A DNA stretch of 64,000 nucleotides from Pseudomonadota bacterium. GTDB taxonomy: Bacteria; Pseudomonadota; Alphaproteobacteria; Caulobacterales; Maricaulaceae. Shown here piece by piece: positions 40,210 to 53,134 of the stretch. Made by a program: the position numbers and the translations under genes. The notes under the pieces were generated by a model that was not told the origin of the DNA, did not search any database, and saw nothing but the letters and a program-made list of their open reading frames with translations. The stretch covers positions 26,792 to 90,791 of the forward strand of contig JAZAHA010000056.1 of assembly GCA_036231565.1 (NCBI GenBank). The letters run 5' to 3'. Positions within the stretch are counted from its first letter, which is position 1, and each line of letters begins with the position of its first letter.

Positions 40210-40463
40210 GGGTCCGGAGCGCCGCCAGGGGCCGCGCGCACGAACGAACGGGTTTTCAGTGTGGAAGCCTGCGTAGATCAGCCGCCGTCTAGTCGGCGCC
40301 GGCCTGGCGCCAGGGTGGCAATGATCAATACGCGCCCGGCCCGGAACCGGGCCTTTCAAAGGGCGGAAAGTCTCGCCAACGTCTGCAATGCAGCCTCAAG
40401 GGACTGACTACTCACCGCAGAACGTGGCCGCTCTTTTTCATGCTTCGGGCTGTTTGGCAAACG

Positions 40464-40496
40464 AAAACGGCCGCTCCTGGCAGGAGCGGCCGTTTT
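40464..40496. terminator. Intrinsic terminator beyond the duplicated tRNA 3' end
   Basis: AAAACGGCCGCTCCT-GGC-AGGAGCGGCCGTTTT, a 15-bp stem with T-tracts on both strands. Confidence 0.85.
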
Positions 40497-40531
40497 TCGA
40501 TCCGTGCACCACACCCTCCAACAGAGGGAAA

Positions 40532-40577
40532 TGGCGCGAGTGACGGGACTCGAACCCGCGACCTCCGGCGTGACAGG
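40532..40577 (-). repeat. att-type duplicate of the tRNA-Asp 3' portion (tRNA nt 32-77)
   Basis: 46 bp identical to 42278-42323 (49 bp with the flanking AAA); identity stops within the anticodon arm. Confidence 0.95.
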
Positions 40578-40703
40578 TTCGAAAAATATCTAATTAAATC
40601 AGTAGCATTTTCAACTTCGGGCCGTGCCGTGTGAGCGCGTTCTAGCTAGTTCAGAAGTAGAAAGTAGAAACGAAGGTGGCTCAGGAAACCGTATTTTTGA
40701 AGG

Positions 40704-40744: not shown

Positions 40745-41932
40745 CTACAATCCGGCACGACGCTCAAGATCGCGCTTCGCGACGATATTGTGCAAGTTCG
40801 CCCAATGAGGTCGGCTCTTTCCGACCGATTGGGGATTCCTCCCCAAGCTATCGCTCATCTCTTTGGTGGCGCGAAGGAGATGGTATCCGTCTTCTCGCCA
40901 GAACTTCAGAACGTTATTGAAGGACCCGCGCCACCGATATTCACCGGTCATTGGATCAGCTTCCACATACCAACGGAGCGACGCCAAAATAGCGTACAGT
41001 GGACCACTCACCATCCGATACTCCGAGTTCTTCTGGATGAACGGAAAGCTCCACACACCCTTTTGCCGTTTTTCGGTGAAACTGAGCGCGCCTGCAGCCC
41101 CCCTCTGTCCGGCGGACGCTGCCGTACCGTTCCACAGCTCGTAGTACTCGTACCTGATGGTGTCGTAGAGCTGCAGAATATCCTTCAGGAGCGGACGCGC
41201 ATTCTCGAAGGTCTTCGCCCTGTTTTCGAACTCCGTGAGCACCTTGGACTTCTTCTCGTACGCATGAACGGGATGCTCAGGCCCGTCATTCGGGTACAGA
41301 CCGATATTGAAACACGCCAACATGCTCAGAATGTCGCGAGCGTCGAAACTGCCATAGTCGTTCTCCGACCAGGCGATTTCATCGAAGTAGGGCTCGGCTT
41401 TGAGATCGGCTTTGATCCAGTCGAAAAGACCACCCAGATTATCGAGGCTCATGTCCTGAACCTGAACGGACGTGTTCAGTCCGCCCGCGATATCAGTGAT
41501 CAGATCATCCGGCACTCCAACCCGAACCTCGATTGTGACGAACTGGTTCGCAGGCAGGATACCAAGTTTCAAATTTCGGCAAATGAGGTCGTAGGTGTGC
41601 CCACCATCGACGATCCCGTCTCGCCCAGACAGCATCTCGACCTGGTATCGATCGTTGGCCATTTGCTTGACCGACTTGGCAACAATCGTGATGCCCTTGT
41701 TTTTCAGATGGAAAGTATTCGGATAGTCGACATCCTCGTTCAGAAGGCTTTGTTCAACTTTCCGATAAACTCGCTTGTTGGTTTTTGGCCTGCGCGCATT
41801 CGGGTCAAGCGAAATACCCAAAGGCATTCCAGAAACTGGCGCCAAAAAAATATGCCGCTCCAAGCCTTCAATGACTGGATCGGCAATCCGCCGCGCCACA
41901 CGCACGGGAAATTCGACGGTAACAACCGACAT
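40745..41932 (-). CDS. AIPR-family-like protein (short form, about 395 aa)
   Basis: PNARR, FHLKNKGITIV, GIVDGGHTY and LNTSVQV match the AIPR core pattern (N.R / NNGIT / I.DGG.T / N.Q..V). Start MSVVTVEF at 41932 has GGAG upstream; the ORF-track TTG at 42040 is an alternative. Confidence 0.75.
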   Translation of the reverse strand: MSVVTVEFPVRVARRIADPVIEGLERHIFLAPVSGMPLGISLDPNARRPKTNKRVYRKVEQSLLNEDVDYPNTFHLKNKGITIVAKSVKQMANDRYQVEMLSGRDGIVDGGHTYDLICRNLKLGILPANQFVTIEVRVGVPDDLITDIAGGLNTSVQVQDMSLDNLGGLFDWIKADLKAEPYFDEIAWSENDYGSFDARDILSMLACFNIGLYPNDGPEHPVHAYEKKSKVLTEFENRAKTFENARPLLKDILQLYDTIRYEYYELWNGTAASAGQRGAAGALSFTEKRQKGVWSFPFIQKNSEYRMVSGPLYAILASLRWYVEADPMTGEYRWRGSFNNVLKFWREDGYHLLRATKEMSDSLGRNPQSVGKSRPHWANLHNIVAKRDLERRAGL

Positions 41933-42007
41933 ATTCTTCTCCGTAACTATCGCGATCTCGCGATGCTGATGAACGGTGTGCAGCGATCTCGCCGCCACCG
42001 ATTCGAT

Positions 42008-42036
42008 AATATACCGCGCACTGCGCTTCGGCACAA
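42008..42036 (-). promoter_or_regulatory. Putative sigma70 promoter of the islet cargo gene
   Basis: TTGTGC(42036-42031)-N17-TATATT(42013-42008); supports the 41932 start. Confidence 0.55.
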
Positions 42037-42277
42037 CCAAGACTTGATAAACCTCCGTCTTGCTATGCCGGAGGTCGCAAGACGTCGCCTCACGGCGAAC
42101 CGAGGCGGCGCTTTCAAAAAAAACTAGGCAGGAAAGGAAAAAAACCGGCAGAGGCTCTCAAACAAACCGCTGCGCGTTTCAACGCAAGTTGAACCTCGCT
42201 GGCTCAAAAAGTTGAAACCAGTGTCGAAATTAGTTGAAACTTTCGGGAACAGAAAATCGCTAAGCCATTGAAAAAAA

Positions 42278-42354
<77 letters not shown>

Positions 42355-48298: not shown

Positions 48299-48374
48299 TG
48301 GTGGGCGGTGAGGGGTTCGAACCCCCGACCTACTGGGTGTAAACCAGTCGCTCTCCCAGCTGAGCTAACCGCCC
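48299..48374 (-). tRNA. tRNA-Val(TAC)
   Basis: GGGCGGTTAGCTCAGCTGGGAGAGCGACTGGTTTACACCCAGTAGGTCGGGGGTTCGAACCCCTCACCGCCCACCA; 76 nt. Confidence 0.97.
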
Positions 48375-48429
48375 GATCCAAGCTGAGCCGCGCTTTTAGT
48401 CCGCCGCCCCCCTTCGAGGCAAGCGTGCG

Positions 48430-49086
48430 CTACTTCTGCGCCGCAGCATCGCGGATGAGTGCGCCGATCATCATCGAAGCCTGCTCCAGGGCTTCGGCAG
48501 CCGGATCCTCAAGCGCAGCATTGGGCAGCGTCATGGTGACAATACCATGTACCGATGCCCACAATGTCCGCGCTGCCCGCCGGCGAAAGTCCGGATCCTC
48601 GAACCCCTTGCCAGCCTCCAGCACGCCTTCAACGATCCCGAACAACGCATCCTCGGTTTCGGTATAGGCTTTCGGCGCCGCGCCGGACTGGCGGCGGTTG
48701 AAGGACAAAAGTGCCCTCCAGCGCGCATTCTGGGTGACGACAAACTCGATATAGGCGCGTGCCAGGACAAGCGCCCGTTCGAACACCGCTTCCGGCGGCA
48801 GTCCGGACGCCTCAAGGGCCGAGCTGTGATGGATCTCGATATCGCGATAGGTGCGCAGATTGAGCTCACGGATCAGATCGTCGATATCGCCGAAGAGCTT
48901 GTAGATCGAACCGACAGACAGGCCGGCGCGGGCCGCGATCGTGCGGGCCTGCATGCCCTTGAGTCCCTGCTCGGCAAGCAGTTCGCCGGCAGCCAGCAAG
49001 GCTTGCTCGCGCACCTCCGGTGTCAGGCCGGGCCGGCCCCGGGGACGCGGCCGCGTCGGTGTCGGCTGTGGTGTATCCATGCGCAC
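48430..49086 (-). CDS. TetR/AcrR-family regulator (WHG-type C-terminus)
   Basis: HTH segment ARTIAARAGLSVGSIYKLF; LWASVHGIV. Confidence 0.85.
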   Translation of the reverse strand: MRMDTPQPTPTRPRPRGRPGLTPEVREQALLAAGELLAEQGLKGMQARTIAARAGLSVGSIYKLFGDIDDLIRELNLRTYRDIEIHHSSALEASGLPPEAVFERALVLARAYIEFVVTQNARWRALLSFNRRQSGAAPKAYTETEDALFGIVEGVLEAGKGFEDPDFRRRAARTLWASVHGIVTMTLPNAALEDPAAEALEQASMMIGALIRDAAAQK

Positions 49087-49263
49087 TTCCCGCCCGCACT
49101 CTCAGCCGGCCGTGCCGCGCGGGCGCCTGGCACGGGCCGACATCATCCGGTCCATGATGGAGGTCATTCGTCTGCAGACCATTGAATTCAGCCTGGTAGC
49201 AAAATTCAACCGGTTTTGCCGCTGCCGCGCATCCGGCAGCAGCGGCATTCATGACCCGTGTCG

Positions 49264-50418
49264 CTATTCGGCAACGGTAACGCGGTCGATCCCGTCCGCC
49301 GCATAGCAGCCGAGCAGCTTGATCTCGCGAGTATGCTCCTCGATGACGCTCATCGCCTGGCGGACCCGCTCGTCCTCGACATGCCCCTCGACGTCCATGA
49401 TGAACATCTCCTCCCAGGGATTACCGGCGATCGGGCGGCTTTCCAGCTTGACGATATTCACGCCCTGGTCGCGGAACCCGGTCAGCGCGTCGACGAGGCA
49501 GCCCGGCGTGTCGCGCGTGGTGAACATCATCGACGTCTTGCACTCCACCTCTCGGGTCGGCAGCTTGGCCTTGCGGGCAATCACGATGAAACGGGTGATG
49601 TTCTGCTCGTGATCGCCGATACCGCGGGCCAGGATATCCATGCCGAATAGGCGCGCCGCGTCTTCACCGGCGACCGCAGCCGCCGTGTCGTCATCCTCCA
49701 GCAGCCGCTCCAGCGCCCGGGTGGTCGAGGCCGCCATGTGCGTTTCCAGCTCCGGATGGGAGGCGATATAGCGGCGGCATTGGGCCAGTGCCTGCGGGTG
49801 ACCGAAGACCCGGCTGATCCGCCCCTGCCCGCTGGCCTTGCCGACCAGGCAGTGATCCACGCGCAGCAGGAATTCGCCGATGATCTGGGTGCGCGAATTG
49901 ATCAGGATATCATAGACTTCGTTGATCGAGCCCGTCGTCGTGTTCTCGATCGGCACCACGCCGTAATCGACCTCGGCATTCTCGACCGACCGGAAGATCG
50001 AGACGAAATCGCGCTTGGGGGACGGCACGACGGTGGCGTTGCGGCGTTCGAACACCTTCTGGGCGGCGATATGGCTGTAACTGCCCGGCCCGCCGAGATA
50101 GGCGACGGTGGCCTCGTTGAGGTCTTCGTTGCGCATGGAATCGAAGCGCTCGCGCTGACGGCGGATCGAAACCTCGAACAGGGCGTGGAACAGGCTCTCG
50201 ACCAGTTCGGGCGGCACACCCTGCGCCTTGCCGCGTGCCAGCGCGTCACGCAGGACGGCCTGCTCGCGTTCGCGGTCGCGCACCGGCTGACCGCTGGCGG
50301 CCTTGGCGGCCTGGATCTCGTCGACCAGCTCCTGGCGCCGGGCAATGGCGTCGATCAACTGTCCGTCGATCTGTGAAATCTCCGCCCGGATCTCGTCCCG
50401 GCTCTTTATCGTCGTCAC
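49264..50418 (-). CDS. pheA: Bifunctional chorismate mutase / prephenate dehydratase (P-protein)
   Basis: AroQ-type N-domain (R..I..ID..L, DREREQAVL), YLGGPGSYSH, VPIENTTTGSINEVYD, TRFIV, ACT domain KLESRP. GTG start at 50418. Confidence 0.93.
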   Translation of the reverse strand: MTTIKSRDEIRAEISQIDGQLIDAIARRQELVDEIQAAKAASGQPVRDREREQAVLRDALARGKAQGVPPELVESLFHALFEVSIRRQRERFDSMRNEDLNEATVAYLGGPGSYSHIAAQKVFERRNATVVPSPKRDFVSIFRSVENAEVDYGVVPIENTTTGSINEVYDILINSRTQIIGEFLLRVDHCLVGKASGQGRISRVFGHPQALAQCRRYIASHPELETHMAASTTRALERLLEDDDTAAAVAGEDAARLFGMDILARGIGDHEQNITRFIVIARKAKLPTREVECKTSMMFTTRDTPGCLVDALTGFRDQGVNIVKLESRPIAGNPWEEMFIMDVEGHVEDERVRQAMSVIEEHTREIKLLGCYAADGIDRVTVAE

Positions 50419-50441
50419 GGTCTCACCCTTTCTTTTCACAC

Positions 50442-50474
50442 AAAAGAAAAGGGCCTCCCCGAGGGGGAGGCCCT
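50442..50474 (-). terminator. Attenuator terminator upstream of pheA
   Basis: AGGGCCTCCCC-CTC-GGGGAGGCCCT followed by TTTCTTTT on the - strand. Confidence 0.9.
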
Positions 50475-50498
50475 GCAAATCCGGTGCTTTCACACACG

Positions 50499-50570
50499 TC
50501 AGCCGGCCACCGCCCCCTCACGGGTTGCGTTGGTAAAGTAGCCGAAAAAATAGAACGTCGCGAAAGTCAT
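50499..50570 (-). CDS. pheL: Phe/Tyr-rich leader peptide (PheL-like), 23 aa
   Basis: MTFATFYFFGYFTNATREGAVAG*; 5 Phe and 2 Tyr in the first 12 residues, directly above the terminator. Confidence 0.88.
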   Translation of the reverse strand: MTFATFYFFGYFTNATREGAVAG

Positions 50571-50660
50571 GAGACGAGAGTGGCGGCGGTTTTGCGCAAG
50601 GTCAATGCTCAATTTCTGCATCTGCGTCGTGCGTGTGCAAAAAAATGGCAGCGCGCACGA

Positions 50661-50686
50661 AAAAGGGCGGCTGAAGCCGCCCTTTT
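50661..50686. terminator. Terminator downstream of lon
   Basis: AAAAGGGCGGC-TGAA-GCCGCCCTTTT. Confidence 0.85.
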
Positions 50687-50728
50687 CCTGTCACGTAACG
50701 GCACCATGCGTGCCCGACAAGGGCAACA

Positions 50729-53134
<2,406 letters not shown>

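Follow-up and report, generated by a model that had tools for sequence, protein, structure and literature searches.

A predicted Phe/Tyr leader-peptide attenuator upstream of pheA in Maricaulis and other Maricaulaceae

Introduction

Does the short interval between lon and pheA in an alphaproteobacterial genome hold a complete attenuator, and if so, which amino acids would it sense? We addressed this question in a 64,000-nucleotide stretch of DNA (the window; assembly GCA_036231565.1, contig JAZAHA010000056.1, positions 26,792 to 90,791), which by sequence is from a Maricaulis genome (its PheA is 99% identical to that of a Maricaulis metagenome-assembled genome (MAG) and 98% identical to that of M. 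virginensis). An initial annotation had proposed that pheA is preceded by a complete attenuator, ribosome-mediated and with control codons for Phe and Tyr. Conservation (40/42 loci), covariation, and a modelled switch support this proposal, and all of its coordinates were correct on a minus-strand check. The element is very likely a ribosome-mediated (leader-peptide) transcription attenuator controlling pheA.

Attenuation of pheA by a leader peptide is catalogued mainly from other lineages. Gurvich et al. listed 53 pheL genes in the gamma subdivision and possible cases in Bacteroides and Desulfobacterium, none of them alphaproteobacterial (PMC3082878), and Sun et al. (2013) considered amino-acid attenuator motifs probably gammaproteobacterial in origin (PMC3766115). 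Compared with Rfam and the published pheL surveys (Vitreschak et al., 2004, being outside the comparison), the elements described here are an uncatalogued Maricaulaceae family of Phe/Tyr leaders.

Results

Leader reading frame and control codons

On the minus strand, the order of elements is lon, the lon terminator, TTGACC-N17-CACTCT, the leader ATG, a terminator with a U-tract, and pheA. The parts of the putative attenuator are as follows.

50600..50605, minus strand: -35 box TTGACC, with conserved TTGAC spacing
50577..50582, minus strand: -10-like hexamer CACTCT (family pattern CAnnnT), identified by conservation only
50499..50570, minus strand: leader open reading frame (ORF), pheL-like, MTFATFYFFGYFTNATREGAVAG, 23 codons, stop TGA at 50501-50499, predicted +1 at A50570
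50535..50555, minus strand: control codons 6-12, UUC UAU UUU UUC GGC UAC UUU (F Y F F G Y F)
50522..50545, minus strand: region 1, 5' strands of the anti-antiterminator (RNAalifold consensus hairpin and helix conservation)
50502..50519, minus strand: region 2, GAGGGGGCGGUGGCCGGC, 5' strand of the antiterminator and last six sense codons (18-23)
50461..50476, minus strand: region 3, 3' strand of the antiterminator, equal to the terminator 5' arm and loop
50441..50474, minus strand: intrinsic terminator (regions 3:4), stem 50474-50450, loop CUC, U-tract UUUCUUUUG at 50449-50441

The leader ORF, which is unannotated, is present at 50570-50499 as the initial annotation claimed. Phe and Tyr account for 7 of its 22 sense codons, compared to a background of 4.6% in four neighbouring genes (P ~4e-5); besides the main cluster there is an additional Phe at codon 3 (50564-50562). 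The leader RNA has a fold z-score of -3.67 and is more stable than 200 of 200 shuffles.

Our comparison covered the window and 31 other Maricaulis loci (32 aligned sequences) plus 10 loci from other Maricaulaceae, 42 in total. The same arrangement (an F/Y-rich ORF of 19-25 codons starting with ATG, a TTGAC box, and a terminator) is found in 40 of them. Each of these 40 leaders has two to five Phe codons and one to three Tyr codons, and in all of them the F/Y cluster sits at codons 6-14; one further downstream Phe occurs in Glycocaulis (codon 17) and in L041 (codon 22). Codon usage in the leaders is distinctive. UUU and UUC occur 74 and 29 times (72% UUU) compared to 7 and 50 times (12%) in the four neighbouring genes, and UAU and UAC occur 57 and 11 times compared to 26 and 16. 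This preference for the genomically rare UUU, and for UAU, may tune sensitivity or helix strength.

Conservation in Maricaulis and related genera

A search of pheA upstream regions in Maricaulaceae, as the initial annotation had suggested, yielded conserved leaders in 31/31 other Maricaulis loci and in 8/10 loci from other genera. The other Maricaulis leaders, whose PheA identity to the window goes down to 72%, have 23 codons (20 in L026), lie at the same distance from pheA, and share the core [FY]F-x-x-YF...GAVAG. PheA proteins of the other Maricaulaceae are 44-61% identical to that of the window, and eight of their ten loci have, directly upstream of pheA, an F/Y-rich ORF and then a GC hairpin with a U-tract. 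The loci outside Maricaulis are as follows.

L034, Oceanicaulis: leader MMTANLFFFGGYFYRPHGAG
L035, Marinicauda: leader MITRNAFYLGFYFTPPRGG
L037, Glycocaulis: leader MSTCSTIYVYGFAYRLFTGGG
L038, Alkalicaulis: leader MMTRTAFYRLFSYFGGPGGTG
L039-L042, four Maricaulaceae or alphaproteobacterial MAGs: F/Y-rich leaders of 20-25 codons
L036 and L043, two Hyphobacterium species: no leader

Between genera the peptide sequence diverges, and what persists is limited to the F/Y cluster, the G-rich 3' end (encoding a Gly-rich tail that reflects the G-rich region 2), the terminator, and the spacing of the promoter. In L026 (2853-2984), a 1-nt deletion at alignment column 45 yields a 20-aa peptide ending in VRGR with its stop inside region 2, and all RNA helices and the modelled switch are intact despite the frameshift. 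Because the peptide is not conserved and the L026 helices are intact, what is constrained is the RNA together with the control codons, and not a peptide product.

A covariance model built from Maricaulis sequences only (R1) found 8/8 of the other-genus leaders, full length and in register. Four of them scored 33-56 bits, clearly over noise. A second R1 match in the window (40458-40614, 25.9 bits) consists of a tRNA 3' fragment and a terminator with an M-L-L-I-stop "ORF"; it was rejected as a false positive and therefore sets the R1 noise level at about 26 bits.

Alternative RNA structures

The sequences themselves show the elements, how well these are conserved, their alternative pairings, and the covariation. 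The terminator has a stem of 11 bp (9 G-C) and a 3-nt loop followed by TTTCTTTTG (-23.9 kcal/mol), matching the 11-bp terminator with U-tract first described. It is 97.4% paired across the 32 aligned sequences, and two of its pairs show compensatory G-C to A-U changes (in seven and three sequences). The competing antiterminator joins 50519-50502 (strand GAGGGGG.GGU..CC.GC) to 50476-50461 and encloses a small hairpin. The 2:3 structure reaches -28.5 kcal/mol compared to -23.9 kcal/mol for the terminator, with which it is mutually exclusive. The complementarity of GAGGGGG (50519-50513) to CCCCCTC (50467-50461) noted by the initial annotation is real, and the actual pairing is longer than its 7 bp. 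Region 2 also comprises GAGGGGGCGGUGGCC and GAGGGGGCGG, its GGGGG at 50517-50513 has CCCCC at 50467-50463 as partner, and GGGGCGGUG within it is invariant across 32 species.

Core antiterminator pairs are kept in 31-32 of the 32 sequences, and the helix formed by alignment columns 52-69 and 99-117 is 87% paired. Pair 53:114 is A-U in nine sequences and U-A in twelve, and one of its bases lies in the terminator loop, where the terminator imposes no constraint of its own. The change G104>A in the terminator 5' arm fits both conformers, turning U62-G into U62-A in the antiterminator and being matched by C125 to U in the terminator. When the 3' partners were slid by 1-3 columns as a control, pairing fell from 84-86% to 42-52%. 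Compensatory changes thus support both conformers.

A third structure, the hairpin CGC..CCC-GUGA-GGG.GCG that had been proposed to hide region 2, was found at 50529-50511 and can be extended to 50532-50508. It is the RNAalifold consensus hairpin of the 32 Maricaulis sequences (columns 39-63), and the terminator is the second conserved hairpin. In its apical stem, the T-N-A-T codons sequester GGGGGCGGUG (nt 39-49 with nt 54-63). A second layer of region 1 pairs the G-Y-F codons (nt 26-34) with GGUGGCCGG (nt 60-68) and is 92.7% paired across the 32 sequences.

Modelled ribosome position as a switch

Ribosome position was modelled by folding only the RNA 3' of the ribosome (A-site first base plus 13 nt) up to the terminator loop, which represents the moment before the terminator 3' arm emerges. 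In the window, region 2 remains in the 1:2 hairpin with no ribosome or with the A-site at codon 3, the antiterminator forms (-26 to -28 kcal/mol) with the A-site at codons 6-14, and region 2 is covered once the A-site has reached codon 18 or any later position, including the stop. A stall at codons 6-14 leaves 6-10 nt of the terminator 5' arm paired to region 2 in 32/32 Maricaulis sequences, and a ribosome at the stop codon leaves none in 32/32, so that the terminator forms. At codon 18 no arm nucleotides are paired in 31/32 (3 nt are left in L024). Without a ribosome, 22/32 sequences stay closed and form the terminator. Five other genera show qualitatively the same loss of upstream pairing after the ribosome passes the F/Y codons. 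The antiterminator-permissive positions coincide with the F-Y-F-F-G-Y-F codons, and in this model ribosome position selects the structure as a three-state switch.

Putative promoter and start of the leader

TTGACC-N17-CACTCT was proposed as a promoter placing +1 near the leader ATG. Both boxes are at the coordinates given, with a 17-nt spacer between them and 6 nt (CGTCTC) between CACTCT and the ATG at 50570, and the TTGAC spacing is kept in 40/40 loci. TTGAC begins 35-36 nt before the ATG in each of the 31 other Maricaulis loci, and in the eight loci of other genera the distance is 35-37 nt. Across genera, the sequence between TTGAC and ATG has diverged completely with its length fixed, which is sensible only if the ATG is tied to +1. 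The CAnnnT box lies 6-7 nt ahead of the ATG in 40/40 loci, with A2 and T6 kept in nearly all; the promoter is called by conservation alone.

The leader starts with ATG in 40/40 loci, and pheA of the window starts with GTG. As the initial annotation had it, the leader lacks a Shine-Dalgarno sequence (SD). The anti-SD duplex of the window is +1.0 kcal/mol for the leader compared to -6.9 kcal/mol for pheA, the medians are -1.65 and -5.95 kcal/mol, and 35 of the 40 leaders have no SD (anti-SD duplex weaker than -6 kcal/mol). Leaderless messages are common in a related organism. Caulobacter has 375 leaderless mRNAs that are translated as well as leadered ones (PMC4117421), and its leaderless initiation favours AUG, with even a short leader being inhibitory (bioRxiv 10.1101/2020.05.06.081141). 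Such inhibition predicts a fixed promoter-to-ATG distance. From these sequence features, the transcript is probably leaderless.

Comparison with known systems

Attenuator leaders of Corynebacterium glutamicum are leaderless transcripts, and the PheA of Caulobacter is monofunctional. The closest functional counterpart of the Maricaulis element is Escherichia coli pheL-pheA, in which the same enzyme (a bifunctional chorismate mutase/prephenate dehydratase (CM/PDT), or P-protein) is controlled by a short ORF in which Phe codons are clustered, by alternative helices 1:2, 2:3, and 3:4, and by an intrinsic terminator, the overall length being similar. The two share no detectable sequence or structure homology. 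The Maricaulis leader mixes Tyr with Phe, has 23 rather than 15 codons with 11 of them past the last control codon, and lacks an SD, being predicted to be leaderless. The Rfam model Phe_leader (RF01859) aligned end to end (1-125) over 50571-50444, and its 28.0 bits (E = 0.077 in a 3-kb scan) compared to a 55-bit gathering score indicate that the element is not a Phe_leader member by that family's own test. In ten related loci Phe_leader had no match at E<=1, and in the window none at the gathering threshold. Searches for a T-box, riboswitch, or other catalogued cis-regulatory RNA gave only sub-threshold Rfam matches; those to ctRNA_p42d (29 bits, gathering score 50), whalefall-1, and suhB were discarded as terminator look-alikes.

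Other bacteria provide precedents for single traits. The trpL/rnTrpL leader of trpE(G) in Sinorhizobium meliloti is an alphaproteobacterial attenuator whose transcript begins at the leader ATG (PMC7298713; PMC6614838), so a leaderless start is not unusual for such attenuators. It differs in sensing Trp and controlling anthranilate synthase, and its RNA and peptide have demonstrated trans functions. In C. glutamicum, aroR upstream of aroF is a mixed Phe-Tyr-Phe leader attenuating the aromatic pathway, and it differs in belonging to Actinobacteria, in controlling DAHP synthase, and in having only three control codons (PMC11802643, citing Neshat et al., 2014). Caulobacter crescentus, of the same order-level lineage, has an ilvBN leader and other small leader coding sequences with ribosome-profiled leader peptides along with abundant leaderless mRNAs; the ilvBN leader has branched-chain specificity, and no pheA attenuator is reported in that study (PMC4117421).

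Gene neighbourhood

The genes and the terminator flanking the leader are as follows.

53134..50729, minus strand: lon ORF
50660..50682, minus strand: intrinsic terminator of lon, GGGCGGC-TTCA-GCCGCCC plus TTTTT, from sequence reading
49264..50430, minus strand: pheA, including SD-like AAGGGTGAG (50430-50422), GTG start at 50418, 384 aa

The lon terminator is a separator between lon and the leader promoter; on this hairpin, Rfam gave a sub-threshold PrrB_RsmZ match confined to the hairpin itself. The SD-like AAGGGTGAG of pheA lies about 30 nt past the leader terminator. By its sequence, the pheA product is assigned as a bifunctional chorismate mutase/prephenate dehydratase (P-protein). Among NCBIfam models, the enteric-type PRK10622 fits it best, with a full-length score of 312.7 bits that is under the 577 cut-off; it exceeds the cut-off of PRK11898, and its homologues have the Pfam domains CM_2, PDT, and ACT; the top 120 homologues are all Maricaulaceae-like. 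Horizontal transfer from gammaproteobacteria was considered as a possible origin in view of the PRK10622 and homologue results. The enteric P-protein profile alignment begins at residue 9 counted from GTG 50418. A longest-ORF call would place the start at GTG 50493, reading through the terminator hairpin, and this start is very probably wrong. Database protein P0001, 99% identical to PheA, has 409 aa, which suggests that an over-long pheA start is already annotated in public data.

The order lon-(leader)-pheA-tRNA is maintained across Maricaulaceae genera with small variable insertions (window 48299-49086; L034-L042). In the window, the insertion is a TetR-family gene between pheA and tRNA-Val; at other loci, a TetR gene, a MarR gene, or a cyclophilin gene is inserted between lon and pheA. 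Elsewhere in the window, a perfect 49-nt direct repeat (40529-40577 and 42275-42323) of the 3' half of a tRNA gene (42281-42354) lies around 1.7 kb of inserted DNA. One edge of this insert is AT-rich, and its only ORF (40745..42040, minus strand) encodes 431 aa and belongs to the AIPR (abortive-infection phage resistance) family (Pfam PF10592, 70 bits). The insert, which has no integrase inside, resembles a mini-island that entered a tRNA gene.

Discussion

From these features, we infer a transcription start site, leader translation, termination in vivo, and an amino-acid response that would combine as follows. Transcription would start at, or within 1-2 bases of, the A of the leader ATG, and a 70S ribosome would load on the 5'-terminal AUG and trail RNA polymerase. 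When Phe-tRNA (possibly also Tyr-tRNA) is plentiful, the ribosome would reach the UGA at 50501-50499 and cover region 2 (GAGGGGGCGGUGGCC), allowing the 11-bp terminator to form and transcription to end at the U-tract near 50445. When charged tRNA is scarce, the ribosome would stall on the F-Y-F-F-G-Y-F codons with region 1 melted and region 2 free. Free region 2 would then capture the terminator 5' arm (-26 to -28 kcal/mol) before the 3' arm is made, and polymerase would enter pheA. Without translation, region 1 would hold region 2 and the terminator would form (superattenuation).

Several results weigh against this account or parts of it. A generic sigma-70 scan did not call the promoter, CACTCT being a poor -10 match. 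In five Maricaulis loci (L005, L006, L007, L009, and L033), the -10-like box CAAGGT/CAGGGT, at positions -12 to -7 before the ATG, is also SD-like (anti-SD duplex -6.2 to -8.9 kcal/mol); these might have an SD-led leader transcribed from an upstream start, or the box might have a dual role. The transcript material consists of assembled Logan metatranscriptome contigs, which carry no read ends, and one contig (run X25, leaf litter, 94.5% identical) is unbroken over the lon end, leader, and pheA (window 49234-50990). Its source is read-through RNA or else carried-over DNA. When the RNA was folded to equilibrium with the ribosome masked, the terminator probability was about 0.99 in every state; lacking discrimination, this folding was dropped as a switch test in favour of the co-transcriptional truncated model. 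As the terminator always wins at equilibrium, the decision must be kinetic; the E. coli trp switch likewise rests on a kinetic argument. Without a ribosome, the antiterminator is already preferred in 10/32 Maricaulis sequences and in the other genera, so superattenuation is not uniformly predicted. Four of the other-genus leaders score 22-26 bits with R1, which is noise level, and the evidence for them is position and reading frame, not score. In the two Hyphobacterium loci (P-protein 44-46% identical), the 300 nt upstream of pheA contain no F/Y ORF, attenuator terminator, or covariance-model match, and the element has either been lost there or was never gained.

The unbroken contig and the SD-like AAGGTG/AGGGTG 7-12 nt before the ATG in five loci are what would be expected if the attenuator were real but not leaderless, its leader being transcribed from an upstream start (lon read-through or another promoter) and translated from an SD or after a short 5' untranslated region. 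An in-frame ATG at 50621, giving a 40-aa ORF in the window, also fits. We consider this unlikely, given that lon has its own terminator, that upstream in-frame extensions of the leader ORF are not conserved and are absent from several species, that 35/40 leaders have no SD, and that TTGAC stays 35-37 nt from the ATG across genera despite divergence of the spacer. Control could instead be mainly translational, the U-tract or the terminator 3' arm pairing with the pheA ribosome-binding site (RBS) and gating ribosome access. The initial annotation had pointed out that the U-tract can pair with the RBS region; such pairing is present in the window (with AAAAGAAAGG, 7 nt, -7.1 kcal/mol), and comparable pairing occurs in Marinicauda and L042. 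However, it is no better than chance and is not conserved. Composition-preserving shuffles reach the window's pairing in 44% of cases. The 37 loci compared average 3.97 paired nt, and shuffles 3.10; at least 5 nt are paired in 14/37. Together with a canonical intrinsic terminator and U-tract conserved in 40/40 loci, this makes mainly translational control very unlikely. Least credible of all is that the product of the ORF is a small hydrophobic protein that has a function and a terminator to itself, pheA being independent and the alternative pairings incidental. The peptide is highly conserved within Maricaulis (YFTNAT..GAVAG), and leader peptides such as peTrpL can act in trans (PMC7298713). 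Outside the genus, however, only the F/Y cluster and the Gly-rich tail survive, the conserved codons coincide with RNA helices, the frameshifted tail of L026 is tolerated, the approximately 30 nt between the terminator and pheA hold no conserved promoter, and the element is always directly upstream of pheA even where flanking genes differ.

Which amino acids an attenuator of this kind would sense is a closer call. Prephenate, from which both Phe and Tyr are made, is the product of the P-protein's CM domain. Dual Phe and Tyr sensing is plausible because Tyr codons are kept (at least two in 39/40 leaders) and the CM domain feeds both branches, which would make a response to Tyr physiologically sensible. 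E. coli pheM, with one Tyr among its Phe codons, counts for sensing of Phe only, in which case the Tyr codons would be kept as region 1 pairing (U31-G63, A32-U62, U33-G61, U34-G60). The invariant UAY-UUU at codons 11-12 is indeed also structural, being part of the region 1 helix 26-34/60-68. In C. glutamicum, Phe limitation raised read-through at aroR and Tyr availability had no effect, according to PMC11802643 (citing Neshat et al., 2014), and this precedent calls for caution on dual sensing. Conversely, the leaders with at least two Tyr codons include genera where the positions and pairing partners differ, and Tyr makes up 9.5% of leader residues compared to about 2% in neighbouring genes. 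We give sensing of Phe only a little less than an even chance.

A more elaborate possibility is a true two-amino-acid sensor, in which a stall at Phe or Tyr codons would open pheA; we regard this as doubtful. Within that reading, the chorismate mutase domain of PheA may alone supply the cell with prephenate for both amino acids. By analogy with S. meliloti rnTrpL/peTrpL, the terminated leader RNA of 125-130 nt and/or the peptide, made constitutively, might in addition act in trans.

With a textbook mechanism and with precedents for both of its unusual traits, the element is an incremental advance; it is worth annotating and is a convenient experimental system, and should not surprise a specialist. 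As a very likely attenuator, it would extend Phe leader-peptide attenuation, catalogued almost only in gammaproteobacteria, to a marine stalked alphaproteobacterial family. It also defines a new RNA family, missed by Rfam and by annotation pipelines, for which there are about 40 examples and a covariance model that works. The family offers natural tests of two points: whether ribosome-polymerase coupling is tight enough for attenuation when the AUG is 5'-terminal, and whether a branch-point enzyme can be made to follow two amino acids by mixed Phe/Tyr codons. If the two-amino-acid sensor is true, one leaderless attenuator would integrate two charged-tRNA pools at a pathway branch point.

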